64,000 nt of DNA from Eledone cirrhosa (taxonomy: Eukaryota). Made by a program: the position numbers and the translations under genes. The notes below the pieces were generated by a model. That model searched no databases. It was given only the letters and a program-made list of their open reading frames with translations, and had not been told where the DNA came from. Position 1 is the stretch's first letter; each line of letters begins with the position of its first letter. This document shows, one piece after another, positions 6,966 through 42,409 of the stretch. The stretch is taken from assembly GCA_964016885.1 (NCBI GenBank), contig OZ024746.1, positions 12,896,001 through 12,960,000 of the forward strand, read 5' to 3'.

Positions 6966-7790
6966 TGTAAGCTGATTGTGTGCATTACAGGTTCCGTTCA
7001 TCTGATGGGCTTCCAAACAATTTCCATCAACACAATTTCACTCAACATACATGAGTTGACATGAATGACCCTTGCCCAACATCCAATACTGCTGTTACAA
7101 GAAATGCTCAGTCCACTCCATAAAGTAGTGCGGCTTAAAATAAAATTTCACTGGAGATAGATTAGCAAAATATAATAAGCGGGGAGTTGGGTGGAATAAG
7201 AGCGGAATCTGAAAAATTAATAAGCAGGGGGAAGGGGGTGAGGGGGTACTAGGGTGGTGGGGGTGGGGTGACCATTATTCGAGACACCAGAGTATGTATA
7301 ATTCTCTGAGTTACTACTTATCTTTCTCTCTACGTTTTTCACAATGATCATTGCCTTATTATTTGCTTTGAATAATTTGTATTGTTGTATTTCATGATGG
7401 AACCTCTCACCCAGTAACGCAGCAATGAATGGTAAAAGCAATGCTGACATATCTGATAGCATCACACCCTTCTAAATACAAAGCTTCAATGTCCATGACG
7501 AAACAAATAAGCTATCTATTTATCTCTCTATCTCACCACACATTTCTGTATACATGCATGCATAAACACACACACACATATATATATATATATATGTGTG
7601 TGTATATGTTGTGTTCTACCCAGCACTACATTACAGTATATATATATATGTGTGTGTGTGTGTTAATAAAAAACCCATGATCACATGACACACTTTTGGT
7701 TTCTGTTGCAAGGAATTTGCAATATGTACATATGCAATTGAAGTGGATGTACCACCAATAATATGAAAAAGACAAAACAATATATATATA

Positions 7791-7868
7791 CAGGGTGTCC
7801 CAAAAATGTATACACACTTTGATTAGAATGCTGTTGAAGTGTGTATACATTTTTTGGGAACACTCTGT
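7791..7868. mobile_element. Tc1/mariner-type MITE (short palindrome)
   Basis: TA-CAGGGTGTCCCAAAAATGTATACACACTT...AAGTGTGTATACATTTTTTGGGAACACTCTG; a related left end lies at about 56695. Confidence 0.6.
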
Positions 7869-8754
7869 CTGCACTTTGATGATGATATATATAGATGATG
7901 ATGATGATATATATATATCATCATCATCATCATTTTACATCTACTTTTCCCTGCTTGCAAGGGTGGGATGGGTCCTATTCAGCACAGCATATATCTATAT
8001 ATACATATATACATGGTGGCTGCCAACTCGTTTTCCACTACTTTATATCCATGTAGGAGAACCCATACTGATGCACTGAACGAGTGTGACTTTTTAGTCC
8101 AGCCAGCGACTTGAAAACTCTGGTACAAACACTACACTTGTGACAATTATTGACACATAGTGCTGGGCCCATGGTACCATGTGATGACAAGTGCAGAGAG
8201 ATCTCCAGATATAAAGCAATGCCTGTGCCGTGAAGCTTTTATAGTGAGCAAAGGCACTGCACAAAGCCAGTCCCACTCTCTTAACCAACGACCTGACCAT
8301 GAGACAGGTTGTACTGTGATACATGTTACATATATACATATATACATTCATACATACATACATATATATATACATACATACACACATACATATATATATA
8401 TACAGTATATATATATATATATGTCCCAGCACCTTAGCCATACTATCACCCACAGTAATACTCCCAATGTGTTGACTTTCCTCAAAAAGTATTAGACAGA
8501 GACAACGGCACGCCATGTGATGCGTGACTGATTGACCCACATTTCTTAATGTTGACTTAATATTTCCTTTCATTTTGATTTTCATGTGAAATATTCATGT
8601 AATTAAGTAATAGAGATACATCTGTGTATCTGTTGATTTTTCACAGCTATGGCATTTGTGTTTGTAATTTCAGTCTATCTATATTCTCAACATATTTGTT
8701 TTGGAAAAAAAATATCAAGTTTGCTATTATGTAATTATATGTACATCCTGTCAT

Positions 8755-9095
8755 TTCATTTTCATTTCACTTTACGTCCGCTTTTTCCCTACTTACAAGG
8801 GTGGGACGGGAACTGATGCTGGCTTGATTTCTACAGCTGGATGCCCTTCCTAACACCAACCTCATTTACAGTGAGTGCTGGGTGCTTTTTTGTCGTGGCA
8901 CCTCCACGACCACTTTGCAGTGGAATGATATGGACCCCAGTCCCTATCAATCTCATTTCTACAGCTGAGTAAACTGGAGCAATGTGAAATAAAGGGTCTT
9001 GCTCAAGGAAACAACACATCACCCGGTCTGATAATTGAACTCACAACCTTTCGATTGCAAGGCCAATGCTCTAACCACTAAGCCATGTGCCTCCA
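8755..9095 (-). mobile_element. tRNA-head CORE-like SINE with RTE-type 3' tail
   Basis: The minus strand has TGGCTTAGTGG (A box), GAGTTCAAT (B box) and CORE-like TGTTTCCTTGAGCAAG. A near-identical copy lies at 57365-57667. Confidence 0.75.
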
Positions 9096-9115
9096 TATTT
9101 ATTTCGATATAATAG

Positions 9116-9159
<44 letters not shown>

Positions 9160-9224
9160 ATGTGTATGAAAATACAACAAATAATATGATATGATTGGTT
9201 GACTTATGATAATAATAATAATAA

Positions 9225-9351
9225 TTGTTTCTTATATAGGCACAAGACCAACAATTTTGGGGGCAGGGGAAAGTCGATTAAATCAACCCCAGTGCGTGAC
9301 TGGTACTATATTCTATCGACCCCGTAAGGATGAAAGGCAAAGTTAGCCTCG
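9225..9351 (-). mobile_element. 5'-truncated SINE (main family) inserted in an (AAT)n tract
   Basis: Matches the SINE 3' half; GATAATAATAAT is present on both sides. Confidence 0.7.
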
Positions 9352-9600
9352 ATAATAATAATTCTTTCTTTATTAACCACAAGGGTTGACATAAAGTATA
9401 ACATTAAGGACAGCACAGGACAGTACAAATGAGCATTTCTGCGTGTAAAAAAAAAAATTATATATATAAAAAACAAGAACAAAAAATGTAACAAAAAAAA
9501 AATGAAACAAGGAAAAATTCCCGAATAGTTGGGAGACTTTGGAGAGCCACTTGTGAAGAAAGCCCAGAAAAAGGTACGGTCATCCTGACTGCTAGGGCAA
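9352..9600 (-). mobile_element. Solo 3' UTR fragment of the Tx1-type element
   Basis: Highly similar to 38747-38960 (TTCTTTATTAACCACAAGGG...CATTTCTGCGTGTAAAAAAA...). Confidence 0.8.
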
Positions 9601-9747
9601 TAATAATGAAAATGATTGTGTACAGTGCTCAAGTGCACTGTGTATGTGTGTGGAAATATATGTAGGTGTAAAAAAGAAAAAGGGAAACAGTGCTGAATCA
9701 GGATGAAAGCTGATATACTATTTATTTATGTTCATACACAGAACAAG

Positions 9748-9834
9748 AGCACTACCTAAGGTTTCAAGACCCAATATTGACCAAATCTCTAGATTGTAAG
9801 AGAGATCAAAATTGTGACCTAATCTTCAGATGCT
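9748..9834 (-). ncRNA. Type I hammerhead ribozyme with extended stem II
   Basis: Minus strand: AGCAT CTGAAGA [~57 nt hairpin] GAAA CCTTAGG TA/GTGCT. Stem I is 5 bp; stem III is A-U, C-G, C-G. Confidence 0.7.
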
Positions 9835-10126
9835 TAAACAAAGGAGTTTAAAGTCCTTGAAAATGATGTCACAATTTTGATCCCTCTTATATACTCAATG
9901 TTGGGTCTTGAAACCTTATGTAGTGCTTTTGTTCTGTGTATGAACATCAATAAATTATGTATATATATATATATATATTATTGTAATTGTAATTTTGAAT
10001 CTTATTGTACAATTATAGTATAACATAATATATGTCGCATCCATCCCACACTGTTGTCCACAATATGTATCTGTATGACTCTTCAGCAGAATAAGAGGTT
10101 GATTATATGTACAAACATTATTAATA

Positions 10127-10175
10127 ATGCTCCGAAGACTCCAAGCCTAGGCTTGGAAGAAACAATTGTCAGCAA
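10127..10175 (+). ncRNA. Hammerhead-like motif with core variant CCGAAGA
   Basis: TGCT CCGAAGA CTCCAAGCCTAGGCTTGGAA GAAA CAATTG TC/AGCA, with a palindromic stem III and a U-to-C change in the core. Confidence 0.6.
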
Positions 10176-11537
10176 TTAAATGTTCTAACATAGCTTTGAT
10201 TCTTGTGTATTCTATATATATATATATATATGAAAAATGGTGTGCTGCGTAGTTGCAAATGGGTTGCATATGAATAAAATTAGTCCTTCATCAGTGATCT
10301 TCCAACCTTCATTGGTATTTCTTCGCTTTAAAGATCATATACCTCTGGTTGGTGCGAGCAATAACTAAAGAGAGTTATTGGGACACGTAAAATAGGGTGA
10401 AGCGAGCGAGACATGTAAACAAACAAAGATGGTAAAGCAACGGAAAGAGAGGAAGAGAAGAGACAAGTCCATGATATCTATGAACTTAAGTTCTGTGAAA
10501 TCATAGACGAGAGGTAAAGACCATCCGACCTGCATGAGATGTGAGCGAGAAAAGGATTTCACGCAGGTCAACGAAAGGAAGTGAGAGAGGGGGAGTAGCA
10601 GAGAGTGAGTGAGTGAAAGTGTGAGGAAGAGGCCAGCTGAGAGAGAGACTGGCAGAGGGGGTAAAAAATATATAGACATATATATAAATATATATATAAA
10701 TCCCGCTGAGGTTAACTTTGCCTTTCATCCTTACGGGGTCGATAAAATAAAGTTCCAGTAATACACTGGGATAATTGCTGGTTTTGTGCCAAAAGTAGAA
10801 ACAAATATAAATATATATATATATATATATATTATTGTCATCATCATCATAATCACTGTTTAAGATCTTTTTTTTTTCCATGGGTTGTCTACGTTATGAT
10901 GGCTGCAAACTCTGCTAAAAGTATTGCAATCGCTTGTCAGATTATAAAGTTTGGTGCTATTTTAGGCTATAGCCAGCCACACAAACCTGTAACATATCCT
11001 GAACAAGCAATGCCTGTGCTTTGAATGTTTTTTAAGTGGGGAAAGGCCTTTCACTCGACCAATCTCACTTTCTGAGCATCGAAAACACTACTTGAAAAGG
11101 AGAACTGGTCAACATCCTCGGATGCTTCTGGAGCCACAGGTTTTTTTTCAGAGTTTCCCTCTCCTAGAAAGTTGTTGAGACAACAACTGGGGGCTTTCGC
11201 AGGTAAAACAAAAAGTACTATTTGGATGACCGCTGACTCTGTTGAGTTCTTCTGCCCTTTGCCAGGTCTTTTATTTCATCCCGCAGGGTGTCCTAATATC
11301 ACCCTTCTCACCAAGCTAGCTTGGTGGGTTTGCTGGTTTAGTCACCGACGACCCGACCATGAGACAGGTTGTATTGGGTTACATGTTACCAGTAGCACTC
11401 GAGATCGACCTGACATAAGGAAAAATAGAGATAGTTCTATTGCCATAGAAGATCTTAACTTGAAAAAGGCTTTAGTATACAATAGGGTGACATATAAAAT
11501 ACCACTATATATATATATAGATATATATATATATAGA

Positions 11538-12680
11538 AGATCTACACCCAAAATGAGGGAGCAGCCATTGGCGTCAGCAAGCTGGTGACGTTGCCAACCT
11601 TTTTATGGTTTTATGGTGGAAAAGGAGACTCAAAGATCTCCTTGATGAGAGCTCCATAGACCTCATCATGTACTCTCGTTACGTAGACGATATCAATATA
11701 GTAATAAGAACATCCGCACAAGAGAGTACTAACAAATATGATTTAGAATGTAGCACAATGGAAAGCATCCAGCAGATAGCTAATTCCATACACCAGAGTA
11801 TAACTGTAACTATCGACTACCCTTCCAAACACCCTAACAGTAGACTACCTGTATTAGACATGGAACTCTGGATTAACACTATAGACGAGAAGGCCCAAAT
11901 TCTCTACTCACACTACGCTAAACCCATGGCCTCCAAATACCTGATACTCAAAAACTCATCAATGTCCAGTAGTGCTAGGTTTAATATTCTGATCGCAGAC
12001 TTGGTACGAGTGATGAAGAACGTGTCACGCATGTGCAACCCAACAGAAATGGAAAGACACATCCAACACTTCATCAACCGCATGCAGTTCTCTAGCTACA
12101 ACCAAAGAGACAGAATCAGAGTATACAAAGGAGCCACGGAGAAGTATAAGACCCTCATAGAACTGGACATGAAAGGAATTTGCTCATTATACAGGAGCAA
12201 ATCATGGAATAGCTTAGATAGGACTAAACATAAGATAGGGAAAGCCACCTCATGGTACGACAACCAGAGATACCAGAGTGTCATGTTCGTGGACGCTACC
12301 CCTGGAGGGAAATTAGCTAACCAGTGTAGAAAGGTCCTGAGAAAGACCCACTTAAAGATTAAGGTGGTAGAAAAGCCAGGAACTTCCATAAAATCCCTGA
12401 TCAGCAAAACATACCCTTTTAAGAAAACCCACTGTACTAATAGGAAATGTATTATATGCAAAGTAAACCCCTGGATAAACTGTAAAACTAGAAACGTAGT
12501 CTATAGCATATGTACAGAGGGTACTTGCAGAAACATGACAACAACAAACAACATACATAGGCGAGACAGTTCGTAGCATAGGTGAAAGGATAGACCAACA
12601 CTTGGGGGGGTCGGGGTTAAAAGGACGAAAAAACGGTTCAGTACTATATGAACACGCCAGACAACAACATGATATTACAT
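11538..12680 (+). mobile_element. Penelope-like element fragment (RT C-terminal half, Cys-rich linker, start of GIY-YIG)
   Basis: ORF 11605-12576 has YSRYVDDI, LPVLD, HYAKPMAS, FVDATPGG and CxxxxCxxC...C-NVVY, then a frameshifted YIGET...GER...H. Motif B (QNEGAAIG) lies upstream, and the fragment starts right after (TA)n. Confidence 0.85.
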
Positions 12681-12740
12681 GATATTAAATGATATTAAAT
12701 GATATTAAATAAATGGAAACTATATTTATAAAACCATATT

Positions 12741-12801
12741 TATTCTATTATATATATTTCAAGGGTACCAAAACTTTGGTACGCTCTCATCAGATAAAAT
12801 A
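12741..12801 (-). ncRNA. Minimal type I hammerhead ribozyme
   Basis: TATTTTAT CTGATGA GAGCGTACCAAAGTTTTGGTACCCTT GAAA TATATA TA/ATAGAATA. Confidence 0.8.
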
Positions 12802-12931
12802 CAAAGTTTGTTTTATAAATATTGACATAACCAGGAAGAAGAGCTTAACGGTTCAAGTTTTCTATCCAGGAATAACTTGAACAGTTAAGATCCTATTCCT
12901 GGTTATGTCAATATTTATAAAACAAACTTTG

Positions 12932-12992
12932 TATTTTATCTGATGAGAGTGTACCAAAGTTTTGGTACCCTTGAAATATATATAATAGAATA
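12932..12992 (+). ncRNA. Minimal type I hammerhead ribozyme
   Basis: TATTTTAT CTGATGA GAGTGTACCAAAGTTTTGGTACCCTT GAAA TATATA TA/ATAGAATA; 8-bp stem I and palindromic stem III. Confidence 0.8.
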
Positions 12993-13031
12993 AATATGGT
13001 TTTATAAATATAGTTTCCATTTATTTAATAT

Positions 13032-13088
<57 letters not shown>

Positions 13089-13229
13089 GTATATCTCTAA
13101 TGACTTGATTTTTTATATATATATATATGTACGTATGGATTCACCGAACATTTATTATAATGCTCGGTGTGTTTGTAAACAAACATCCCGTATTAAGCCG
13201 TAGTGTCTAGCAACCATCGTTGCTCGTTT

Positions 13230-13316
13230 GTTCAACACTGACAAAGGAACGCTGTACTAGTTTCAAGCTTATTAGCTATCGTCAGCAACGTATACCTTCC
13301 TGCCAGATTGTTGAAC
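13230..13316 (-). ncRNA. Type I hammerhead ribozyme with long extended stem I
   Basis: Minus strand: GTTCAACA ATCTGGCAGGAAGG TAT ACGTTG CTGACGA TAGCTAATAAGCTT GAAA CTAG TA/CAGCGT T CCTTTGTCAG TGTTGAAC. Confidence 0.8.
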
Positions 13317-13731
13317 GTATATACTTACCTTATGCATATTAACAGCTGAGTAGCCCAATTTGCATATCGAGTGGGTTAATCGGCCGGGTGCACTGAAAAC
13401 GATAAACGTTTCTCTGGCGACGAGCTCAAGGCACAATCGATGTAATGATCGAACCTGACTCCGAAAATCGCAAAGTCCTCAGATACGTCTTGATTCTACG
13501 AAGCAGATTTTCCTATTTACCGCATACGGACGCTTTAAGCATCCAACACCGATTATATATATATATATATATTTGATATATCTCATATGAAATAATACAG
13601 CCAATTTTCCACACAATACAATTAGTTAGCACCCCGAACGTTTAATTAGGAATATACTCACTTATTTCCTAATGTTTGTTGAGTGAGTTGGGATTTGGCC
13701 GGAGTATCGCTATTAGCTTTCTCCGATAATG

Positions 13732-13776
<45 letters not shown>

Positions 13777-14689
13777 TCAGGTTATCAATAATGTAGTGAT
13801 AATATATCGTTACGTTAGAGATGAACAGCGTACGTGCAGGTTTGCTCAACGAGTATAAATTATATTCCGGAGAAAATGTAGAAAGGATGAATATAAAATG
13901 AAAGTGCTTTTTTTAAAAAGGAATTTATTAGGTATTGACATATGTTTCTGTAACAGACGGAATACCTATGTATCGCTGCTTGCGTAATCATATAATGTTA
14001 GCAAGTATTCGATAGCAAATGTATAATCAGTTGTCACTTCTTCAGAGATTTTGGATAAATTGGATAAAATCAGAAAAATTGAAGTATTTATATTAGTAAT
14101 AGAGGAAGAAAAAGAGGGGATAGTATATGACAGATGGTAAATCAATTTACTGCTAAACAAGTATATAATGGGTTTCTAATGAGAATACCATGAGTAAATG
14201 GTTCATTTTATCTAAATATGAATTTTTGGGAGTGCCAATTTTAATATCTACTTGACCAATTGGACAGTGGACAGGACTGGTCATTTGGTGTAGTAGTATT
14301 AATTATAAAGTGTCAATTGGGGAAGGGGGAGATTTCGATTGCTACTGAATAACATCAATCTTAGTAGCCAGCTGGTATATGCATTAGGGAATTGAATCAA
14401 GAAATCAGAAATCTCATTTTATCTATAGCAGTTTATATTAAAAGGTAAATAATAGAAGAGTTGATAGAATTAAGACTAATAAAGAATGTTAATATCTATT
14501 TTGACAATCAAACGGAGATAGAGACAGGCGTTCAATCCTGGTAGTATTTATAATATGAAAATGTAGATTTTAAGCGATGGTTACAGTATAACGATCGCTC
14601 TATTCTGTTATTTAATAAAATGTTTTTGGATTTCATAATACAAAATAATTCTACATTACATAATTTACAATATTCCTGTCCATGGGATT

Positions 14690-14915
14690 ATATGGGGGGG
14701 GGGGGGGGGGCAGCTGCTATTATATCCCATTTTAGGTGAAATTGTTGGTTATTTTCACGCAGCTGCCAAGCCTTGTCTGCGAGTGTTGTTACATAACGCT
14801 GGTTTTCATGTTTTATCGAGTAACGATGTCTATAAAGGCGTGATTTGAAGGAGGTGGCTGTAGATCCCACATAGTACCACTTCTGTCTATCCGATTCGAT
14901 AGTACATTTGTATAC
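14690..14915 (-). mobile_element. PLE GIY-YIG endonuclease fragment
   Basis: YKCTI...YYVGSTATSFKSRLYRHRYSIKH...TTLADKAWQLR...LKWDIIAAAP is a GIY-YIG pattern typical of PLEs (Naiad-like). Confidence 0.78.
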
Positions 14916-15367
14916 GTGTATATATATATATATATATACGTGTATATACCTATATATATATATATATATAGGTATTTTATATGTCACCCTATTGTTCACT
15001 AAAGGCTTTTTCAAGTTGATTGAGACCCTCTATCGGAATATAGCTACAAGCTGAAGGGAAATAACTCGTGCAAGGCATATTTGTTTGAAGATATGTACAT
15101 GTGTTTATGTTCTTTCAAAATTCTTCTGATCTTTTTTTCTGGATGTGGTTGTTGCCATTGAAGGCAAGAATCGGGGGGAAAGCTGTTATTTGTTATTCTG
15201 TTATTCCAGAATTTTGCGTTACCCTTGTGTTTCCACACCAATATTTTGCCCAGAAAATTCCACAAAGATTTGAGTTAATTCCCTTAGTTCAACTTTGTTC
15301 TTTGTTTTCGTTTCGTTTTATGTTTTAACTATTTCATTTTCTTCCTTCCTCCTCCCTCTTTTTTTTT

Positions 15368-15420
15368 CTTCTTCTTCTTCTTCTTCTTCTTCTTCTTCTT
15401 CTTCTTCTTCTTCTTCTTCT
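15368..15420. repeat. (TTC)n microsatellite
   Basis: Direct reading. Confidence 0.95.
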
Positions 15421-16119
15421 CCGCTCTCTTATTCCGTGGAGGGTCATGGGGGCAGAGTCCTCAAACACACCCCCCAGCGGGTTCTGTCAGAAGCAATCGT
15501 CTCCAACTGATCCGGCTGGATTTTCAAGCGAGACCAGCCAAGCTCATGGATCTTATCCAACCATGTGGCTCAGGGTTTACCCCTGGGTCTCCAGCCGGTT
15601 GCATATCACGAGACCCCACTTTGGGGTCTAGGGATACGCAGCCTCCCGGAAAAACAAAAACAAAGGGAAAAAACAAAAAAAAAAAAACGTAATGCGAATG
15701 AAGTTGATGGTTGAGCTCCCTAATTCTATTTTATTCTTATCTTTAATTTACGCCCAAAGGAAATCTTCCAGTACGCGGTGTAGCTTGATAGCCGTTCGGT
15801 TGGAGTGCTGCAGCTGCGTGGGAGGGAGAGAAGAGAGGGGGAAAAGTATCGAACCTCAATCATTGACTTTTCCTTTTAGTCAAGCATTGCCCACTATAAC
15901 AATATATTTATTTATTTTATTTATTTATTCAATTTTTTCATTCTTTGCTTTCCCCTCCTCCTCGCCCCGCCACCCCCGCCTTTATATTTGATTTTACTTG
16001 CTCTCTTTCATTCGGTCATGCATTTAGATATCTAATTTTCTAAAGAAAAACATTTTCTTTGTGAGGGTTTTTTCCTCTTTTTAAGGTCTATACATCTTTT
16101 CTCTTCGTTCTCTCCCTTT

Positions 16120-17600
16120 ATAGATCCCATTCAAGTCTGAAGTGGTAAACGTTAGCTACGATGAGGCCGTATTCAGCATTAATCCCATCTTGCCCGAAGC
16201 TTGGCTAACGTTCAAAGACGCCACCTGCATTTTCAGCTCTCCAATTTTCTCGAAAGCCATACAAGAGTGCCTTGTTGACCAAGCCCGGAGACCTGCCGAG
16301 AATGGCGGAGAAGTTGCGCCTTTTTGCCGTGCACTCGACTCAAGAGGAACAGCTTCGCCCTTCCCAAATTTTTGTCACCCTCACGCAGATTGCCTCTGTG
16401 AACTCTATGTCATCACCCGATGCTGTGTGGAACTCATCTGCAATATCGGTTTCAACAGTGCCGGCTGGCTACGGGCGAAGCTCCCTGTGAGGTTCGATGG
16501 CCTCAGCCTAGGATCCGCATTGGGTCTGGCACTGCCGGCCTACCTCTCCCCAACCTCCTCCAATCGCACCCTCATTTGTGAGGTCCTCAGCAAGAAAGCA
16601 GAACCTGACATAGTCCTAGAACTGAAGCGGGTTCTAGCCGACTGGACAGGAAAAGGACTCTCTGTCCCCTAGTATACAAATGCCCAATGTAACTGGGACG
16701 ACATCAAGTGCAGGACTACCTTCTGGCGGATCGAGTCTGTCTTGGACCAACACTACCTAGCCTGCATCCATTCCGCTTCGCAGCTAAACAGCGGTGTATG
16801 GTTCAATTTGGTGCCCTCTTCATCAGCCGGTAACCTTGTTGATGAGTGCACTCGCATCGGAGTGGTCCAACACCTCAGCCTCCCCGTATGTGATTCACAT
16901 AAATGTCGTTGTGGAGCTGTCGTCGATGAATTTGGCCTGCACCCACTGTCATGCCGCCAGAGCGCAGGCTAGTTTTTCCGACATGCCGCACTCAACAATA
17001 TAATAGGAAGGAGCCTGGGTACAGCCGGCTTCCCATTACAACTGGAGCCTGCAGAGACGGCAAGCGCCTGATTAAATTACCCTCATGGCATTCGAAGGAG
17101 GTAAATCTCTCATTTAACACACAACATGCTCTGTCAGATTTTCCTCCTCCAAGTTAGTCGCTTCGGCTACAAACCACGGTACCTGCGGCCTGCAATGCAG
17201 ACAACAGGAAGACAAGCAAATAATGGGGTTTGTCCTGCCGCTTTTTCTTTGTACAAGTAACCGTCGAGGCCTCAGGCGTCCTCGGACCCCGTACAGCCGA
17301 GCTCCCCCGTAAAATTGGAACGACAGCAGCCTGTCTGGGGAAGGAGCCCGGCGAGGTGGACGTGACCATTGTCCGCGGAAATGCCTTTGCCTAATAGTCC
17401 TTGGCCTTTCTATCTTTTTCTTCTCATTTATGGCATTTATAATCATTTCCTTTATATTCCTATACAGCCAGATCTGCCCTTCTTTACCCCCTTCTCCTTT
17501 TTTTTCATTATTTAGTTTTGTGTTTATCCTTTTTTTACTATCTTCATCATTGTATAACGTTTATTCAATAAATTCATTTTTAATTTCTCTTTAAAAAAAT
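16120..17600 (+). mobile_element. CRE-clade (RLE endonuclease) non-LTR retrotransposon 3' fragment
   Basis: AKLPVRFDGLSL, SGVWFNLVPSS, CRCG...GLHPLSC, RHAALN-like and DGKR.. RLE remnants; pyrimidine-rich 3' UTR with AATAAA. Confidence 0.75.
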
Positions 17601-18599
17601 AATTAATCAGCACATCTCAGCGGCAGACAACATAGCGGCAGAGTTATCATGAAGAATGATCTCCCTTGATTCGTAAGCGTACCAAAATTAAGTTACTACG
17701 TGACTGACGTTTTAAGCCATCAAAAAAAAACAAAAAAAACACACCCTCTCTATTATTTTCCAACGTCGGCTTCGTTGACAAATCTTACTTATTTCTAAAT
17801 TCGACTGATGATATGCGTAAATACAAAAATATCTAAATGAATATTTAAATGATACAAACATGGATGCTATATATATCAAATTTATTCCACCCCATTGAAG
17901 TTGACTTGTAAAAAATATTGTATAACCTCTGTATTTATATACAAATGTAATTAAACAGAAATATACGATTACTTTCTAGATTGAGCTATCATATCAGCGA
18001 CTACGTTCACACTCAGTTGACATACATATACATACACACAGGAATTTTGTTTGTTTTTTTAGTAGTGTGCGTGTGTGAGAGAGAAATTTAATATAAACAA
18101 TCGGCCTGGTTGTCTGGTGTTCGGACACAAATAATACTAAACACCATTTGTTGCTGGTTTATATCTTTAAACTATTTTTTTTTTTAAATAATTATAGACA
18201 TTGCCCATTTTTTATTTAATTATTTTGATAGTGTAGAAAAACTATTGCCTCTACAACTATCCACGAAACCTACAAATAGAACGAGCAGTTGTATACAAAT
18301 GATATCAGTTATATACAACTCCTATCAGTTTTATATTGGCCTTAATAATATTGGCGGGAACATTTTCGTGAACTTTTATTCTAAAATATAGTTAACAATT
18401 AGAAAGTATATACTAAAGAAAATAAATATTTTATATTTTATTGAAAATGTCTTCTCTTGATTGTCAATATAGGATAAGTTCTCCACTAGTAAATTATTGC
18501 CGCAGATTTAGTGGGTACTAAAATAACGAATTTTAACAGAAATTACATTTTTCAGCTCGCGATTTGCGGTCGGATGGTCGAAGTTATTTATGTACTGTG

Positions 18600-18915
18600 A
18601 GGGCGGTGAATTGTTAGGGCATCGAACAAAGCCTTAATGTTCGTTCTGGGTTCAAATCCCTGCGAGGTTAACTTTGCCTTTCAACCTTCTGGGGTGAGTT
18701 CCAATGAAGTACTATTCAATTTAATTACTGGCTTTGTGCTTTAAGTAGAAGTGATTATCTATGTACTATTGAGCTCGCGTCGTCAAAATTCACAAAAAAT
18801 ATTGGTTTCTTATATAGGCACAAGGCCAGCAATTTTTGGGAAGGGGAAATTCGATTAAATCGACCCCAGTGCGTGACGTACTTTATTTATCGACCCCGTA
18901 AGGATGACAGGCAAA
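18600..18915. mobile_element. Two decayed SINE copies (about 18600-18755 plus, 18805-18915 minus)
   Basis: Similarity to the main SINE consensus. Confidence 0.65.
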
Positions 18916-19259
18916 ATTCATAAAAATATTAAAAGTTGTTCATATGCATGAATTATTGAGAGTTAAAACCCACATTCTATGGGTAGAGGTAAAAACTCAA
19001 TTCGGTCACAAATGACCATGGGGTTTACACCTAGAAAGTTCTAATTTAATAATGACATATCTATTTGTAATCAACGATCTTTATCTTTAATATTCAACAG
19101 AAAAAAGAAAGAATAAGAACAATTTCTTACTTTGCATTTAATATTTGACAAAACTCGAAAGTTTTCTCTTATGGTTGATATACTACAAAATATGTTTTTA
19201 ATGGGAAAATATTTTATCACTATCCAATTTATTTTTTAAAATATAGGATGACATGGAAA

Positions 19260-20720
19260 TCGTTGACAGAAAAGGAACTCAGAAACAGATTTGCGGATAC
19301 TATTGCATCCAAATTCAGAGAACTCCCTGAGCAAACTGAGGATGTTGAAACGGAGTGGACTGTTCAGTTCGGCAGTTTCTGTTTAAGCTGTTAGATGCTG
19401 CGGGCGAAAGAGGCTTGGTGTGGTGCTGGGTGCGAGGAGAACCCTTTGGTTCAATCAAGAGGTCAAAGATGCCATCTGTACAAAGAAGGAGGCCTACAAT
19501 GTTTGGCTTGGAAATAAGTCCTCCTTCTTGCACTTGCGGTATAAGCAGGCGCGAAAAGTCGTAGCAGGGACAGTAAAGGTGTACAAAGTTAACACATGGG
19601 GAGACTTTGGGGTTAAACTGGAATCCGATCAGCAAATAAAGATTTCCTCCACTCATGCTATCAGGAACGCTTCTGGGGTTCTCCTCTCTTCAGAGAGGTG
19701 CATTCTCGCGCGGTGGAAAAAATACTTTGCTGATCTCTAAACCCGGTCACAACAGCATCAGATGTACTTGAGGTGCATCTGGGAGCGATGACTAACCTCT
19801 CGGAGGCTGAAGTCACAAGAGCAATTAAAGAGCTCAAATGTCGCAAGGCTGTTGGAGAGGATGAAATTCATCTTGAGATATTAAAAGCTTTAAATAGAAA
19901 AGGTATTCTCTGGTTAACTTGTGTAGCCTGAATCATTGGAAAGGCAATCGGGAATGATAACGCCAATTTTCATAAAAGAAGACAAGAGAAATTGCTCCAA
20001 TTCTAGAGGGATCTCCTTGTTAATCTTCCCAAGTAAAGTCCATACTAAGTGTCTGGCAAAGAGATATAGGAACATTATCGAGTTCAAGCTAACAGATGAA
20101 CAGTATGGTTTTCGCTTCGGACACAGCACAGTCGACCAAATATTCACTCTTGCGGCAGGTTTTAGAGAAATCGTGGGAGTACTGCCAAAGGCGTATTCTT
20201 GCTTCGTAGACCTCGAAAATGCATATGACCGCGTTCCACGGGACATGTTGTGGAAGGTCCTGCAGGAGTATGGGATCGATGGTCAGCTTCTTGCTGCCCT
20301 GATGTCTCTTTACGAATGGCCGAGTATTTGTGTTCGGATAAATGGTGTTTAAATCGAAACCATTCAATGTGGTAGTCGGACTCTGCCATGGGTGCCTAGT
20401 CACCTTGCTTGTTCATAACCTCCGCAGACAGGGTTGACATGAGCAGTTGGGTTGTAAGTGGCATCGAGACTGGTGAGTGTAGAATCAGTTGGCTGGAATT
20501 TGCGGACGACATGATGTCACTTAACACGTTAGAAGATGATTCCCGACATGAACTTGGTGGGTTTGATGCCAAGTGCTGCTCGGCAGGAATGAAAATCAAT
20601 GCTGCGAAGTCTGAGACACTCGCCCCTCAGGGAAGCCTGCATAGTGCACGCTAGATGTGATATTTCACTGAAGCAGGTGGAGAAGTTCAAGTATCTTGGG
20701 GCCACGTTTACAAGTGTTGA
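19260..20720 (+). mobile_element. RTE-clade LINE RT fragment, decayed
   Basis: PIFIKEDKRNCSNSRGISLL, EQYGFR, STVDQIF, FVDLENAYDRVPR, LEFADD and VEKFKYLG. Confidence 0.85.
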
Positions 20721-20774
20721 AAACCAAACCAAATTGCGCGTTTCACTATTTTATCTGGCAATATTAGGACAACA

Positions 20775-20962
20775 AGGGCGGTGGATTGTCAGTATCGGTG
20801 GAGGGTCGGACGCCATGCTTTCCAGCATAGTTACGTCCCTTTACGATCTGAGTTCAAATCCCGCCGAGGTTGACTTTGCCTTTCATCCTTACGGGGTCGA
20901 TAAAATAAAGTACCAGTAATGCACTGGGTAATTGCTGGCCTTGTGCCTAAAGTAGAAACAAT
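20775..20962 (+). mobile_element. Full-length SINE with ~15 bp TSD
   Basis: Flanked by AATAT(T/G)AGGACAACA at about 20760 and 20960. Confidence 0.9.
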
Positions 20963-21299
20963 ATGAGGACAACATGACCTTCCCCTAAAGCATACAACAT
21001 TCTAGAAATTGTGACATATATAATCTTCTAAGAATTGTGATGTAATTCATATTCTAAGAATTGTGATAAGAATTATATATACGTAAGAATTGTGATAAGA
21101 GTCATTAAGCTACTCCCAGGCGTGTTGCACCAAACTACAACTTTGACTTCGATGTTTATTTAATAAAATAACATTACGAACACTAAACTATATTAAACCT
21201 GTTTTACATGTCAGGTTTCGATATCTACCGTTAAACTATATCAAATTTATTTTACATGCTGCAAGACAGTTTATAGAGAATTCATGCCTCCTTCGTCAT

Positions 21300-22360
21300 C
21301 CAATCTCCTTGTGAAGCCGGACTAGAGAAACACCTTCAACAGCGTTTTGCGGGACCACGTCCTAGATGTGTCTCAGACGAGCCCCCTTCTATTTACCCTC
21401 TCGCACAGAAGACAGAGTTATTTCCACAACGCGTATCCAGCAAGGAGACCCACTCGGCCCGCTCCTCTTTGCGCTAGCAGTTGACAACGTTGCCTGCTCG
21501 GTCCGGTCACCCTTCAACGTTTGGTACCTGGACGACGCGACCCTGGGTGGCTCGGTTGAGACGGCAGTTGAGGACCTTCGGCTAATCATCCCAGTTCTAA
21601 AGCTCCTTGGATTCGAGGTCAACCCATCCAAGTCCGAGGTGATAAACGTTAGCTACGGCGAGGCCGAAGTCCACGACGCCGTATTCACTATCCATCCTGT
21701 CTTGGCTCGATTAACGCCCGAAGACGGGTCCCCCGACATGCAGCTCTCAACGACTTATAGAGAAGGATCTTGGATGCAGCTGGCTTCCCATCACAACTGG
21801 GGCCATCGAAGACGGCAAACGCCCCGACCGAATTACCCTCTTCCCATTCTGGGACGCCACATATTGTAACACGTTCTCCGCTTCCAATTTAGTCGTTTCG
21901 GCCACAAACCCCGATGCCTGCGGCCCGTAATGCAGAGTACAGGAAGACAAATACCGGGACTTGTCCGACCGCTTCCTCTTCACACAGGTCACCGTCGAGA
22001 CTTCAGCTGTCCTCGGACACCGTACGGTCGACCGCAAAACCGGAATGTCAGCAGCTCGTCTGAGGAAGGAGCCCCGCGAGGTTGGGTGGCTGTTGCAGTG
22101 AGTGTTGCCGGCCATTGTCCACGGAAACGCCTTTGTAGTTTTGTCCGTGGATCGCAGCCCAAACACTGCCCTGCCTTAGGCTCAGAGCCCTCTCCACTTC
22201 CTCCTCCCTTTCTTCTGTGGCCCAAGAATCCTTGATTTTCCTCTCATTTGTGGCATTTATAGTTCTTTCCTCTATTTTCCTATACAGCCAAATCTGCCCT
22301 TCTTTATCCCTTCCTCCTTTTCTCATTACTTAATTTTATTTTTATCTCTTTTTTATGTAA
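21300..22360 (+). mobile_element. CRE-clade retrotransposon fragment with internal deletion (RT to RLE)
   Basis: IQQGDPLGPLLFALAV, WYLDDATLGG and VNPSKSE, then a jump to DGKRP-type RLE. The 3' UTR is similar to 17400-17530. Confidence 0.82.
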
Positions 22361-22448
22361 TCAATGTTTTAAGCCAACTTAGTGAATAATATATATATAT
22401 ATATATACGATATTAAACAAATGGAAACTATATTTATAAAACCATATT

Positions 22449-22514
22449 TATTTCATTATACATATTTCGGGGATACCATATTAAAAATATGGCATGCCTT
22501 CGTCAGATAAAATA
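22449..22514 (-). ncRNA. Minimal type I hammerhead ribozyme
   Basis: TATTTTAT CTGACGA AGGCATGCCATATTTTTAATATGGTATCCCC GAAA TATGTA TA/ATGAAATA. Confidence 0.75.
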
Positions 22515-22593
22515 CAATATATAAACAGTTTTATAAATAATTTTGACGTACCATAAATATGAGCGACCATTATGTAGGAAGTTGGTTTGGTAG

Positions 22594-22654
22594 TTTATCT
22601 GACGAAGGCATGCCATATTTTTAATATGGTATCTCCGAAATATGTATAATGAAA
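22594..22654 (+). ncRNA. Minimal type I hammerhead ribozyme
   Basis: TTTAT CTGACGA AGGCATGCCATATTTTTAATATGGTATCTCC GAAA TATGTA TA/ATGAA. Confidence 0.72.
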
Positions 22655-23019
22655 TAAATATGGTTTTATCAATATAGTTTCCATTTGTTTAATATCGTAT
22701 ATCTACTCCAAAAACTTGTCGAGTACTTTATATCAGTTATAAAATATTTACTTGTTGTAACCCAACAATTTTAAATAAAACTTTTGCATATATATATATA
22801 TATATATAGGGATTAAAATACTAGAGCGTGTTGGAGTTAAACACCCTCTTCGTATTATAGAAATGACAGTAAAAGGTATAGCTCAATGTAATTAAACAGA
22901 GCCGAAGAATTATGAAAGTAAAACAAAGAAGCCTTCAATACATCAAAAGTCTTTATTAGCCAACAATGTTATATATATATAATATATAAGAACAAAAGAT
23001 GGTTAAAGGAGTTCCATGT

Positions 23020-23088
23020 ATTTTATTATGCGCATTTCAAAAACAAATATCATCATGCAATAATATTTGTGTTTTCATCAGATAAAAC
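23020..23088 (-). ncRNA. Minimal type I hammerhead ribozyme
   Basis: GTTTTAT CTGATGA AAACACAAATATTATTGCATGATGATATTTGTTTTT GAAA TGCGCA TA/ATAAAAT; identical to 52259-52327. Confidence 0.8.
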
Positions 23089-23257
23089 AGGAGGACATGA
23101 TATGAAGGCTAAAAAACATTTGTGGATAGTTCAGTTTTAAATCAACATATCATTGTCTTAAATATTATGTATACTCCAGTCCCACAAACTGTAGAGTGCT
23201 TCTTATCCGATATCTGCATTGCTTTATTGTACTACAATAAAACTCATATATATAAAA

Positions 23258-26045: not shown

Positions 26046-26364
26046 TTGGGTATTTTTATTATTGTGAAACAAGTGTTCAACAGAAATATATGCGGGGGAA
26101 AACCAATATTATTTATAATATTGTTTGTACATATGTTACGTGGATGGAGGAAGGGTAAAAGAGAGAGAAGTGTTTTAATGGGAGGGGAAGTGAGACAGAG
26201 AAAAATGTTAATAGAAGCAGAAGACAGAGAGAGAGAGAGAGAGAGAGTACAGTCATTAGAAGTGGGGGGGGGGTAAAGGTGTGTGGTGGAAGGCAGCTAG
26301 AGAGGAAGAGGCAAAAAGACTAAGTGGGGGGGGGGCACAATCATACACACACTGAAATCTGAAA

Positions 26365-26540
26365 GTGGTGACGTACATGGTGGTGGTGATGGCGGTGGCA
26401 GTGGTGATGGTGGCAGTGGTGATGACAGTGGTGGTGGTGATGGTGGCAGTGTGGTGATGGTGGCAGTGTGGTGGTGGTGGTGATAGCAGAGGTGGGGTGA
26501 TGGCAGTGGTGATGGTGGCGGTGGTGGTGGTGGTGGTAAG
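26365..26540. repeat. Degenerate (GGT/GAT/GCA)n low-complexity tract
   Basis: Direct reading; it produces spurious poly-His and poly-Pro ORFs. Confidence 0.9.
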
Positions 26541-26839
26541 GAGTGAAGATAAAGACTAGTCGTTTTGTTTTCATTAAACAAAAAAATTTTTTAATCGTCA
26601 GTTAACTCACACGCTTTAATGCAATAGCTGTCGTCTGCTTGGCTGAAACTTTTACAAAGAACTCCGTTTCTATTTAGATTCGCTTAATCAATGACAATCA
26701 ACGAAGCCCAGGGTGAAACATTTCATAGGGATTTATTTACTACCAGTATTTAGTCATGGTTAAATCATTGTATATGAAGAAATATTAAATTAATAGTATA
26801 AATTCTGATAATGGTGTAATAATTCAAACAATAAAATAA

Positions 26840-27360
26840 ATGTTTGTGTATATACTGTTACACACCTTAGTTTGTGTATATACTCTGTCACACACCTTAG
26901 TTTGTGTATATACTCTGTTAGACACCTTAGTTTGTGTATATACACTGTTACACACCTTAGTTTGTGTATATACTCAGTCACACACCTTAGTTTGTGTATA
27001 TACTCTGTTACACACCTTAGTTTGTGTATATACTCTGTCACACACCTTAGTTTGTGTATATACTCTGTTACACACCTTAGTTTGTGTATATACTCTGTTA
27101 CACACCTTAGTTTGTGTATATACTCTGTCACACACCTTAGTTTGTGTATATACTCTGTTACACACCTTAGTTTGTGTATATACTCTGTTACACACTTTAG
27201 TTTGTGTATATACACTGTTACACACCTTAGTTTGTGTATATACTATCACACCTTAGTTTGTGTATATACTCTGTTACACACCTTTGTGTATATACTCTGT
27301 TACACACCTTTGTGTATATACTCTGTCACACACCTTAGTTTGTGTATATACTCTGTGTAT
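26840..27360. repeat. 30-bp minisatellite, about 17 copies
   Basis: Unit TGTGTATATACTCTGTTACACACCTTAGTT; the last copies are shortened. Confidence 0.97.
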
Positions 27361-27419
27361 TATTTCAATAATCGCTATTATAGAAAATAACACAAAGTCG
27401 TACGAGCCGTAACCATTCA

Positions 27420-27630
27420 GTGAACTGGCAGAATCGATAGAGCGTCGGGCCAAATGCTTCGCGGCATAGAATTACGGCCCTTTACATTCTGATTTCAAAT
27501 CCCACCGAGGTTAGTGTTGTCTTTCATCCTTACGGGGTTGATAAAATAAAGAACCAGTAATGCACTGGGGTCAATTTAATCGACCCCTCCCCCCTTCAAA
27601 TTGCTGGCCTTGTGCCTAAAGTAGAAATAA
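27420..27630 (+). mobile_element. SINE (older subfamily)
   Basis: Similarity to the main SINE consensus, with a longer 3' part. Confidence 0.75.
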
Positions 27631-27764
27631 TTATTATTTATGCAATTAAAATACCGAAAACTGACATCTCATTTGACATCTGTGATATCCTTGATGGGTG
27701 AAGATCGGACATTGTTTTTTCCGTTTGTAACGTTTCATTTTGTCCACAATTTGATTTACAGAAT

Positions 27765-27812
<48 letters not shown>

Positions 27813-29329
27813 TGAGAGAGAGAGAGAGTGTGTGTGAGAGAGAGGGTGTGTGTGTGTGTATGTATATATTTCACATTAAATGATTTTAACATTATATCAA
27901 AGGAGGGCGTTCCTATATGATAGTGCCGGAAATTACCTATTATATTAATCCTCGTTATATTTTTAATGATTTTCGGGTTGGTTAAAACAACAATCGCAAA
28001 CCTGTTTTACCGCCGAAAGATGTTCCGAATAAAACATTGTGGGGCAATATATTAAAATATCGCAAATGTGGAAGGTTTCATAAAATACTGGAATTTTAGG
28101 TAAAATGTGTGATGAGAAAACAAATGCAGGAAATTCCCGTATACATAGATCTCCAGTTCTTCCACTGCAAGGCCATTTGCTCAAATGACTCATAAAGTAC
28201 ATTGGTTGCTGAAAGAGTTATTCTACAGTTTGAGCGGCCTTATTCATCTTGATAAGTCTTTCAGGTTGACAGGCTTGGTTTCTACCTGTTATGAAATACA
28301 TTAAACATTATTATCTGACTTAGTTTCAAAGAATAAATAATTAAAAAACACGATTTATTTCATTTTCTAGCCGAGTTTCACTGTCGATTATGTACGGAGA
28401 TTGCCGAATTTCTTCTTTCAATGTCATGATACTTAAAATGATAGATTATCAAAAAGTCTCGCAAGCAAATAAATTAATGAAACTTTCACTCTCGCCCATG
28501 AAAAAAGTCCATTTTAAAGAAAATCTCTGAATTCAACTAGGAATTCTCCGAATTCAACTTGGATTCGACAGGTAAATATAAAAGTTTTACTGTCTTAGGT
28601 CTATGGAAATGATAAAAGCGCTACATTTACTACAGACACAAGTTGAAAGTATTCAGTTAAAGAAAGCATTAACGAACAGAAGTATGCAATAAGATACTAA
28701 AAACATTTCATTTATTTTCTTTTAATTGCATCAATACTTTCGCAATCTACACCTTCAAGAATATATTTCTGTGGAATTTCATTAGAAATATGTATTATTA
28801 AGAATGTTGTGGGAAAGGAAAATGTGTGGTGGGGGTAAGTAAATAGCAGTTAAACCCACCTACGGGCCTCCAAGTCAGTAAGTGACCTTTAACACAGCAC
28901 ATACAATATATTTGTTGAATATATTAGCATACAGAATTGCTCTTGAAGTTTGAAAAAAATGACAGCAGTGAGGTGGTGATTTGACAACCAGCCTCAAAGG
29001 ATTCAAAGTTCAGGTTTTTAAGATGAAAACAGTTCTGGGTAATAGGTACAAAGAGTTATTATATACCTGACTCGTACATAATGTAAAATAAAAAATGTTT
29101 AAAGCGTAAACTTTGAACATTGTTTTACTTACCATCTTAGTAGTTTTGTTTATTTTACATATTTATAAGTTGGTGTCTTTTCTTTTTAACGTCATATTGT
29201 GGTAGATTTATTCCGCTGTTCAGTTTATTACTACTGCTGACCTCTTGAGTGACTTTAATGAAATCTCCAATACGAGTATAACGTACCTGTTGCAGTCACA
29301 GAGATTGTGTAAACATGTATATATTTTTA

Positions 29330-30098: not shown

Positions 30099-30146
<48 letters not shown>

Positions 30147-30160
30147 AAAGTGTTTAACCC

Positions 30161-30224
30161 CGACGGCAGAGCTCAAGCCGATTCGACGGAAATAGCCGTC
30201 GAATCGGCTTGAGCTCTGCCGTCG
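30161..30224. repeat. Perfect 29-bp-arm GC-rich hairpin between (TA)n tracts
   Basis: CGACGGCAGAGCTCAAGCCGATTCGACGG-AAATAG-CCGTCGAATCGGCTTGAGCTCTGCCGTCG. Confidence 0.97.
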
Positions 30225-30599
30225 TATATATATATATATGTATGTATATATATATATGTGTGTGTGACCAGTGTATATAGGTCACAGACACCCATATATA
30301 TATATATGTGTGTGAGATTTTACTTTAAAATGTATTAACTGGCAATAAACAAAGAACTCCTGTATATATGACTAAATCAATCATATATACAAGAGTTGTA
30401 TATTTGTTTATTGCTGGTGTTGCTGAATTTAGGAGCATTTAATATTATTTTTATTCAAAAACTTTTATGTAGAGATATATATATTTATAATTTTTAACAA
30501 GCTAAGTGTATTTCTCTATATCATTGTGTTAAAATCCATGATCAACATGATGCTTCAGAAATCAGAAGAAAAAGGTCACTATAATGCAGTAAATATTAG

Positions 30600-31592: not shown

Positions 31593-31766
31593 CAGAGGTC
31601 GCCAAACTTTCAGATCTCACGGACCACTAAATTCATAATTTTAAATCCCGCGGATTACTAATATGATTTTTAAAAAAAAAGATAAATACATTAACATTTT
31701 TCTGCGGACCACCAACATTTCTCTCGGACCACCAGTGGTCCACAGACCACTGGTTGGCGATCGCTG
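31593..31766. mobile_element. hAT (Charlie-like) MITE
   Basis: TIRs CAGAGGTCGCCAA / TTGGCGATCGCTG; perfect 8-bp TSD CTTTAGAC. Confidence 0.9.
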
Positions 31767-31844
31767 CTTTAGACTACCAGCTTATGGGTTATGAGTTCAT
31801 ATCTATTGGAGGTATTTGTTTCATTGCATCTGGAAGCCAACTGA

Positions 31845-33640
31845 GGTGGCGAGAGCAGCCCCAGGTCGGGTACGATGGTATGAGAGTGGTCAATGGTCTA
31901 TACTCGGAGTGGAGTGGCGAGAGCAGCCCCATGTCGGGTACAATGGTGGAGAGTGGTCAATGGTCTATACTCGGAGTGGAGTGGCGAGAGCAGCCCCATG
32001 TCGGGTACAATGGTGGAGAGTGGTCAATGGTCTATACTCGGAGTGGAGTGGAGAGAGCAGCCCCATGTCGGGTACAATGGTGGAGAGTGGTCAATGGTCT
32101 ATACTCGGAGTGGAGTGGAGAGAGCAGCCCCATGTCGGGTACAATGGTGGAGAGTGGTCAATGGTCTATACTCGGAGTGGAGTGGAGAGAGCAGCCCCAT
32201 GTCGGGTACAATGGTGGAGAGTGGTCAATGGTCTATACTCGGAGTGGAGTGGCGAGAGCAGCCCCATGTCGGGTACAATGGTGGAGAGTGGTCAATGGTC
32301 TATACTCGGAGTGGAGTGGCGAGAGCAGCCCCATGTCGGGTACAATGGTGGAGAGTGGTCAATGGTCTATACTCGGAGTGGAGTGGAGAGAGCAGCTCCA
32401 TGTCGGGTACAATGGTGGAGAGTGGTCAATGGTCTATACTCGGAGTGGAGTAGCGAGAGCAGCCCCATGTCGGGTACAATGGTGGAGAGTGGTCAATGGT
32501 CTATACTCGGGGTGGAGTGGAGAGAGCAGCCCCATGTCGGGTACAATGGTGGAGAGTGGTCAATGGTCTATACTCGGAGTGGAGTGGCGAGAGCAGCCCC
32601 AGGTCGGGTACAATGGTGGAGAGTGGTCAATGGTCTATACTCGGAGTGGAGTGGCGAGAGCAGCCCCATGTCGGGTACAATGGTGGAGAGTGGTCAATGG
32701 TCTATACTCGGAGTGGAGTGGCGAGAGCAGCCCCATGTCGGGTACAATGGTGGAGAGTGGTCAATGGTCTATACTCGGGGTGGAGTGGAGAGAGCAGCCC
32801 CATGTCGGGTACAATGGTGGAGAGTGGTCAATGGTCTATACTCGGAGTGGAGTGGAGAGAGCAGCCCCATGTCGGGTACAATGGTGGAGAGTGGTCAATG
32901 GTCTATACTCGGGGTGGAGTGGAGAGAGCAGCCCCATGTCGGGTACAATGGTGGAGAGTGGTCAATGGTCTATACTCGGAGTGGAGTGGAGAGAGCAGCC
33001 CCATGTCGGGTACAATGGTGGAGAGTGGTCAATGGTCTATACTCGGGGTGGAGTGGAGAGAGCAGCCCCATGTCGGGTACAATGGTGGAGAGTGGTCAAT
33101 GGTCTATACTCGGAGTGGAGTGGCGAGAGCAGCCCCAGGTCGGGTACAATGGTGGAGAGTGGTCAATGGTCTATACTCGGAGTGGAGTGGCGAGAGCAGC
33201 TCCATGTCGGGTACAATGGTGGAGAGTGGTCAATGGTCTATACTCGGAGTGGAGTGGCGAGAGCAGCCCCATGTCGGGTACAATGGTGGAGAGTGGTCAA
33301 TGGTCTATACTCGGAGTGGAGTGGCGAGAGCAGCCCCATGTCGGGTACAATGGTGGAGAGTGGTCAATGGTCTATACTCGGAGTGGAGTGGAGAGAGCAG
33401 CCCCATGTCGGGTACAATGGTGGAGAGTGGTCAATGGTCTATACTCGGAGTGGAGTGGCGAGAGCAGCCCCATGTCGGGTACAATGGTGGAGAGTGGTCA
33501 ATGGTCTATACTCGGAGTGGAGTGGCGAGAGCAGCCCCATGTCGGGTACAATGGTGGAGAGTGGTCAATGGTCTATACTCGGAGTGGAGTGGCGAGAGCA
33601 GCCCCAGGTCGGGTACAATAGTGGAGAGTGGTCAATACTC
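31845..33640. repeat. 67-bp minisatellite, about 27 highly homogeneous copies
   Basis: Unit GAGCAGCCCCATGTCGGGTACAATGGTGGAGAGTGGTCAATGGTCTATACTCGGAGTGGAGTGGCGA. Confidence 0.98.
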
Positions 33641-41900: not shown

Positions 41901-42409
41901 CTGAGCAGGTTGGTGAGACTCTTGCACCCTCCTTCCCTATCCACTAATCCAACACAATCCCAGCGTGCATCTAAGATCCCGTTCCAGTCGCCCACTAACA
42001 CTAAAGAGCGGGACGTTCCAAGAAAGGTCTCCAGACGCCGGAAGAAATCAGGCCGCCCTGCTCCTGTCGGGGCATAGACGGCCACTAACCTGAAAGCTTG
42101 CCCGTCTCCGCTGGTCACGTCCAGCACCACCAACTTACCTTCTGGGTCTAGGAAGATGGCCCGTATGGCAAGATCCAAACCTCTCCGAAAAAGCACAGCA
42201 ACTCCTCCCCCCGATCCCGGACGGCTGGGAGATGCGTACACATCGTAGCCGCCGAAGATCGGTGCGAAAGCCTGTGCTTCGGAGATTCTGGTCTCGCTGA
42301 TGGCCACTACATCTATGTTTAGTGACCTGAGGTCGTTGAGCAGGTGGCCCTGCTTCCATGACGACCCCAAGCCACGCGCATTTATGCTGCCTATTCTAAG
42401 TGAGGTCAT
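38990..42409 (-). pseudogene. Tx1-type ORF2 (APE endonuclease, RT, C-terminal CxxC-H-C); one in-frame TGA at 41315-41317
   Basis: Two abutting in-frame ORFs (364 and 774 aa) with SINARGL, ISET, GDWN, LDR, TDH, KSPGLDG, FRPITLLN, DQSKAFDRV, QGCPLS, YADD and CPRC...HALVQC. Confidence 0.95.

Follow-up and report, generated by a model that had tools for sequence, protein, structure and literature searches.

The palindrome at positions 12698–13035 of the window (the whole 64-kb stretch of DNA analysed here) is, with a probability that we put at about 80%, the scar left by a Penelope-like element (PLE) of the Hydra clade. Two 5' ends of the element stand head to head in it, likely as a result of priming on both strands, and the structure is predicted to be silent.

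Results

Geometry of the palindrome and its junction

The arms 12698–12859 and 12874–13035, of 162 bp each, paired about the axis i+j=25733 with five mismatches (12783/12950, 12838/12895, 12840/12893, 12843/12890 and 12850/12883). In this register 163 of 176 positions paired, compared with 46 to 66 in 14 neighboring registers, which confirmed the 338-bp palindrome reported in the preliminary description. The true junction was located at 12861/12862. The right arm is a complete pseudo-LTR (pLTR) starting at 12862, and ~10 nt are missing from the start of the left arm; the apparent 14-nt "loop" is therefore mostly 5' sequence of the right arm that has no partner. The features of the locus are the following (family A and family B being the PLE families of the arms and of the host sequence, respectively).

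11536–12673, plus strand: host, a 5'-truncated family B PLE cut inside its endonuclease by the insertion (ORF 11557–12576)
12674–12697, minus strand: decamer from the 3' end of the left arm, reiterated, beginning at a 4-nt host match (from sequence)
12698–12861, minus strand: left arm, family A pLTR without its first ~10 nt, tail-less (sequence comparison)
12741–12801, minus strand: minimal type I hammerhead of the left arm (mirror copy), predicted cut between 12749 and 12748
12862–13036, plus strand: right arm, complete family A pLTR, beginning at the element's 5' end and stopping at the inner 3' end point (one of two), tail-less (by copy L174)
12864–12905, plus strand: pLTR 5' hairpin (predicted fold)
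12932–12992, plus strand: right-arm hammerhead (minimal type I) with an AUA triplet, predicted to be cut after 12984
13037–13085, unstranded: (TA)n target microsatellite, right end (from sequence)

The reiterated decamer at 12674–12697 was likely produced by RT slippage or repeated RT initiation. It was found in one of 82 sampled arm ends, and that one belongs to a duplicate of the 12698–13035 locus; the 82 ends ran into (TA)n in 38 cases, into the tail in 32 and into other sequence in 12. Two 93-nt contigs, among those aligned to 11550–13030, spanned the junction between host and arm; their source may be the assembled sample itself. The two arms differed at three linked sites that are polymorphic in the family and thus carry different family haplotypes. 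This pattern fits two RNA templates, or later conversion, better than a single RNA.

Family A, the element family of the arms

Searching the organism's own genome with the right arm returned 54 matches from 40 scored candidates. The non-inverted copies extended upstream through an AT-rich 3'UTR of ~1.2 kb into a GIY-YIG endonuclease. In copy L172 the order was inverted pLTR, ORF (637 aa), 3'UTR, pLTR and tail, and the near-full-length L174 started after (TA)n at the position equivalent to 12862 and ran through pLTR, tail and ORF; in both L174 and L176 the tail continued into the ORF. From the layout of L172 and L174, the arm covers nucleotides 1 to ~174 of the element, and the ~93 nt that come next form the optional tail. 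This structure supported the earlier proposal of a PLE pLTR hammerhead with an inverted partial pLTR. Copies L172, L174 and L061 show the single ORF, with RT and C-terminal GIY-YIG, between pLTRs that marks EN+ PLEs, and family A also shares with EN+ PLEs a one-ended tail that equals what follows the 5' pLTR.

The family A protein contained RWR, DKT, a CxCX5C linker, CxxC before the E, CxH after the N and a single cysteine inside the GIY-YIG core, with no CCHH. Comparison with Pfam and PDB gave no hit, and its atlas look-alikes scored 0.95–0.98, some of them with GIY-YIG or RVT_1 in a share of their members. The sections of PMC8557442 on the Hydra clade describe C-terminal EN+ PLEs and include one octopus family, Hydra-1_Obim, in the supplement. 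Family A resembles this clade, as presented there, in DKT, CxCX5C, CxxC..E, CxH, the lack of CCHH, the hammerhead and insertion at (TA)n, and differs in having RWR for RWK and in its length. With the ORF and the ~1.2-kb 3'UTR the element reaches roughly 4 kb, above the "generally <3 kb" of the clade. The arms are thus the 5' pLTR of an autonomous PLE, which is assigned to the Hydra clade by motifs and not by a tree.

The host sequence and a segmental duplication

The sequence to the left of the palindrome belongs to another PLE, family B, recognized by an RT with YVDD, a CX4CxxC linker and the start of a GIY-YIG domain. Another 27 family B copies ran past the position equivalent to 12673 into the rest of the endonuclease and then into their own hammerhead-bearing repeat, and ~660 nt of the family B 3' end are missing at the insertion. 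Families A and B were 21–22% identical. The upstream RT-endonuclease ORF was therefore rejected as the owner of the arms, being that of family B with its own hammerhead. At family B loci (L052, L047, L056 and others), inverted 5' copies adjoin the ORF as well.

The exact palindrome junction occurred three times in 3.0 Gb. The two other loci, at C4:11.50 Mb and C4:11.67 Mb, shared their flanks with window 7669–22356 (>14 kb) at ~98%, so that the three occurrences trace back to one segmental duplication. These extensive common flanks also ruled out that the RT fragment and the palindrome moved as one cassette. Window 13772–14919 was missing from both C4 copies, and window 26108–28185 matched C4 sequence beside the left end of the duplicated block, which suggests a rearrangement.

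Abundance of head-to-head pairs

A 32-nt hammerhead pattern had 1270 exact matches in the genome and a 34-nt pattern lying 3' of the cut had 5112. The head-to-head fraction comes from a sample of 57 regions on C1, in which the first 66 of those 1270 matches lie. At least 28 of these regions had an adjacent head-to-head partner (L075 fell beyond the overlap limit) and 15 contained two whole hammerheads, which provided, for this sample, the count of palindromic versus solo copies that the preliminary description had proposed. There were no tail-to-tail pairs in the 57 regions, and adjacent pieces on the same strand were found in only three; L087/L088 and L111/L112 are duplicates. On these counts, such pairs amount to about half of the family A loci, and the palindrome is an ordinary and very common kind of landing scar in this genome. 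From 15 of 57 regions and at least 1270 family matches, head-to-head pairs probably number in the hundreds in the genome.

Non-random searches added 34 further loci, giving 62 head-to-head loci with 58 distinct central 24-mers. Five loci, in two groups, had their central 24-mer in common with another locus, the L111/L112 duplicate aside, and junctions recurred at the 5' self-complementary word, a short sequence near 12865–12871 within the 5' hairpin. A MITE-like unit would show the same junction at many loci with different flanks; here, there were three exact matches with common flanks. The suggestion that the palindrome is a non-autonomous mobile unit was accordingly not upheld, its junction being confined to one duplication, and mobility as a unit is largely refuted. 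It had also been suggested that random inversion points, with no transcription, would reduce the palindrome to a passive PLE integration scar. The inversion points did vary among the 62 loci, as expected for such a scar, but they were clustered at the 5' end of the element.

Hammerhead motifs and their predicted folding

The plus-strand hammerhead is composed of an 8-bp stem I with one G-U, CUGAUGA, a stem II of -9.2 kcal/mol, GAAA, UAUAUA and UA. Both hammerheads of the palindrome have the CUGANGA and GAAA boxes, the UH and the stems I and II of the minimal type I motif, and motif and stem analysis thus corroborated the presence of a complete type I hammerhead in each arm, on opposite strands. 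An Rfam scan of 10000–16000 gave 27 matches at E≤10, all of them microRNA-like hairpins below the gathering score and none from a hammerhead family. In the predicted fold of a single arm, the hammerhead (-5.6 kcal/mol) was not the minimum free energy structure (-11.0 kcal/mol), and stem I pairing in the single-arm transcript was ~0.2. Both the Rfam result and the alternative fold fit the minimal, dimer-type motif as described in the available text of PMC4209133.

We have also grouped 209 motif hits in fetched loci into 25 motif groups, many of them variants of one family. Loop III (positions 15.2–16.2 included) was perfectly palindromic in 20 of the 25, with three different hexamers, and four of the remaining five paired in loop III with G-U. 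Stem I had served as a filter in the motif search, so that only the palindromy of loop III is independent; loop III is thus palindromic and covaries between families.

In the RNA of the full palindrome, the predicted pair probability of hammerhead stems I and II was 0.000 on both strands, with folds of about -235 and -231 kcal/mol. The long duplex (~160 bp) anticipated for a read-through transcript was thus predicted here as well. Because the arms stand head to head, transcription of either strand reaches the antisense arm before the sense arm, so that the hammerhead in read-through RNA would be off and not switchable. These predictions ran against the idea of a self-silencing ribozyme switch and point to a dead ribozyme that would always be off in read-through RNA. 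Transcripts starting at the center of the palindrome would each hold one sense hammerhead, with a predicted stem III dimer of -3.2 kcal/mol.

Neutral decay of the core and context in the window

We have compared private substitutions in the 74 arms of the unbiased set, excluding the 5' half of the core, which is part of the search pattern. The 3' half of the core had 4 in 370 positions and the neighboring columns 48 in 4660 (p=0.79), which suggests that it decays neutrally, like its neighbors. A cruder count, in which shared variants and selected loci were included, gave 10/740 for the 3' half of the core and 181/4186 for the flank. The apparent conservation of the core disappeared once the count was limited to private changes and to the unbiased set, and we read it as selection in the source elements. 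In the 64-kb window, the ORFs of at least 170 aa look transposon-derived or repetitive, with no host gene among them, although the locus may lie inside an intron. We hold with high confidence that the palindrome is a PLE scar without a locus-specific role.

The window contained several other repeats. A second head-to-head hammerhead pair, of a related family (22400–22705), is flanked by (TA)n on each side, and of its two arms only the right one is tailed, as in the textbook arrangement. Solo copies of a third family of hammerhead pLTRs, whose loop III is TGCGCA, were present at 22990–23250 (minus strand) and 52195–52360 (plus strand), one of them tailed. A hammerhead-like core at 13285 lies in another repeat (13130–13330, minus strand) that adjoins the palindrome and has tandem copies in L060. 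Short-spacer palindromes at 9720–9955 and 30112–30257, beside (TA)n and with no hammerhead core by the pattern used, are possibly inverted ends of other PLE families. A 75-nt inverted pair of 89% identity (11457–11531 / 14943–15017), each member beside (TA)n, probably marks the ends of a further repeat family. Within 38993–49811 (minus strand) lie two long copies of non-LTR retrotransposons, with ORFs resembling endonuclease and RT, and tandem arrays were found at 26800–27400, 31700–33700 and 62260–63740.

Ends, tails and alleles of the paired arms

The 5' ends of 49 of 78 arms lay within -10 to +25 of the 5' end of the element, and the 3' ends piled up at two points. Among 48 pairs with both 3' ends (19 unbiased and 29 from non-random searches, with two duplicate pairs left in), 40 had one tail, seven had none and one had two (p ~1e-6 against independence). 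Five independent pairs (L076, L082, L084, L087 and L120) did not overlap, with a near-complete pLTR joined to a tail-only fragment, which rules out that one arm was copied from the other by fold-back. In L076, L084 and L087, the tail-less arm reached the 5' end of the element within a base or two. Among the 36 pairs whose arms were not equally truncated, the tailed arm was the more 5'-truncated in 25 and the less truncated in 11, a weak trend (p=0.03) on BLAST end points that are uncertain by a few nt.

Alleles at one site agreed between the arms in 36 of 37 pairs (against 0.42 when permuted), and the divergence between paired arms was 3.0% vs 4.3%. The common subfamily alleles indicated that both arms usually derive from one source element. 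This concordance ruled out, family-wide, a general origin of the arms from two different templates, an idea that the palindrome locus had raised.

Read by eye, about 72 of 78 arms selected by sequence 3' of the cut continued through the hammerhead, and at most six started within ~10 nt of the cut, mostly at the TA-rich loop III. Copies starting at the hammerhead cut could thus account for at most 6/78 arms. The small number suggests that the copied RNA was mostly uncut, in agreement with the in vitro work in PMC11167929, as far as its available text goes. Two mini-palindromes, L237 (C1:73.21 Mb) and L244 (C1:78.21 Mb), have both arms beginning near the hammerhead cut, that of L244 joined through the TA loop III; they may have been copied from cleaved RNA or joined by microhomology.

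Discussion

Possible routes to the inverted pairs

The one-sided tails, the non-overlapping pairs and the truncation trend favor twin priming over the published fold-back. As read from the end products, we lean towards twin priming, with RT starting at two fixed sites inside the RNA, for the origin of PLE inverted repeats. The GIY-YIG endonuclease would nick both strands at (TA)n or AT-rich DNA. Reverse transcription would then be primed by each 3'-OH on uncut element RNA starting at the 5' end of the pLTR, from one of two fixed positions that lie ~174 and ~267 nt from the RNA 5' end. The two cDNAs would extend towards this end and be linked through microhomology, in many cases within the 5' hairpin. 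At the palindrome locus, both arms would have begun at the inner site, with the loss of ~660 nt of host; the pair was later copied passively in the segmental duplication. The locus is atypical for twin priming in being tail-less on both arms, like the other members of the 7/48 class, and in the two haplotypes of its arms.

The published reading of such junctions is self-priming, in which one strand folds back at the 5' palindrome of the pLTR and is copied into a hairpin. It is the favored model in the relevant passages of PMC3846280, with the one-sided tail ascribed to endonuclease resolution, which would strip it from one arm, in those of PMC8557442. Junctions clustered in the 5' hairpin, some of them centered on the self-complementary word, and paired arms with usually the same alleles are what it would produce. 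We nevertheless consider it unlikely, as it does not accommodate the five independent non-overlapping pairs, three of them with a tail-less arm reaching the element 5' end, nor a tailed arm, the would-be template, that tends to be the one with less 5' sequence (25/36), nor the different haplotypes of the arms at the palindrome locus. Those haplotypes, with their three linked differences, would instead suit two separate family A insertions, the second into the 5' end of the first in opposite orientation, and the accessible part of PMC11167929 reports in vitro cleavage by a PLE endonuclease of its own pLTR. Such a double insertion seems improbable given that alleles of paired arms agree family-wide, that each pair typically has one tail and that tail-to-tail pairs were absent from the 57 regions; these points speak against it as a general route and less so for the palindrome locus alone.

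The preliminary description had favored a host role as a switch or editing substrate, or a palindromic unit moving on its own. Both cores are intact, a ~160-bp duplex is predicted in read-through RNA, and transcripts running outward from the center could in principle dimerize through stem III. Against this, the predicted stem pairing in read-through RNA was nil on both strands, the 3' half of the core decays neutrally, the junction is confined to one duplicated block while 62 loci had 58 distinct junctions, no host gene was found among the window ORFs of at least 170 aa, and cleavage by minimal PLE hammerheads is weak even in dimeric form (PMC4209133, in its available text). We regard either version as very improbable.

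Relation to known systems

The arrangement itself is already known, opposite-strand hammerhead pairs and inverted pLTRs being in print (PMC4209133, PMC8557442, PMC3846280). Opposite-strand dual minimal hammerheads 100–700 bp apart were described in truncated PLEs of Schistosoma (Cervera and de la Pena 2014, PMC4209133), with the same minimal type I motif, a long stem II and a palindromic loop III within a pLTR. They differ in host and family, and the available text of that paper neither analyzes their junctions nor proposes a mechanism. In EN+ PLEs, pLTRs that are inverted, truncated at the 5' end and tailed on one side were reported (PMC8557442, Fig. 2 legend; PMC3846280), and, in the parts available, they are like family A in the head-to-head copy, the tail at one end, the 5' palindrome and the (TA)n targets. 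Family A differs from them in the length of the tail (~93 nt vs 30–40), in that most pairs consist of the pLTR alone, and in its non-overlapping pairs, which point to twin priming, unlike the self-priming proposed there.

A closer parallel for the proposed route comes from Poseidon of Anolis (PAc), for which, in the accessible part of PMC11167929, both strands were cut and extended in vitro, uncleaved RNA was used and the RT started at two internal sites bounding the tail. Family A would share the two start sites, the both-strand cutting and the uncleaved RNA; PAc belongs to another clade, and that text does not tie these properties to inverted insertions. Non-LTR retrozymes, as described in the available part of bioRxiv 10.64898/2026.07.22.740005, likewise have a type I hammerhead, derive from PLE pLTRs and are protein-less, but they form head-to-tail tandem arrays, whereas the palindrome is a head-to-head pair of the end of an autonomous family. 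The palindrome was for this reason rejected as a retrozyme.

The useful addition of the present analysis is mechanistic, namely a genomic argument for twin priming. In LINE-1 twin priming, two target nicks prime on one RNA species, giving a 5' inversion with a microhomology join; the internal position at which the second primer anneals varies, and the two pieces do not overlap. In family A, by comparison, both starts appear to be fixed and the arms usually overlap. A literature search over titles and the beginnings of abstracts, outside subscription papers, returned no paper on twin priming in Penelope.

The palindrome locus has no special importance in itself, being one of probably hundreds of pairs. 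Family A is instead a good data set for the open question of PLE inverted repeats and their one-sided tails, and its thousands of copies make twin priming directly countable. If many of the pairs are intronic, they would be a bulk source of double-stranded RNA. Twin priming, if true, would tie the two start sites seen in vitro to the head-to-head signature in the genome and replace the self-priming model.
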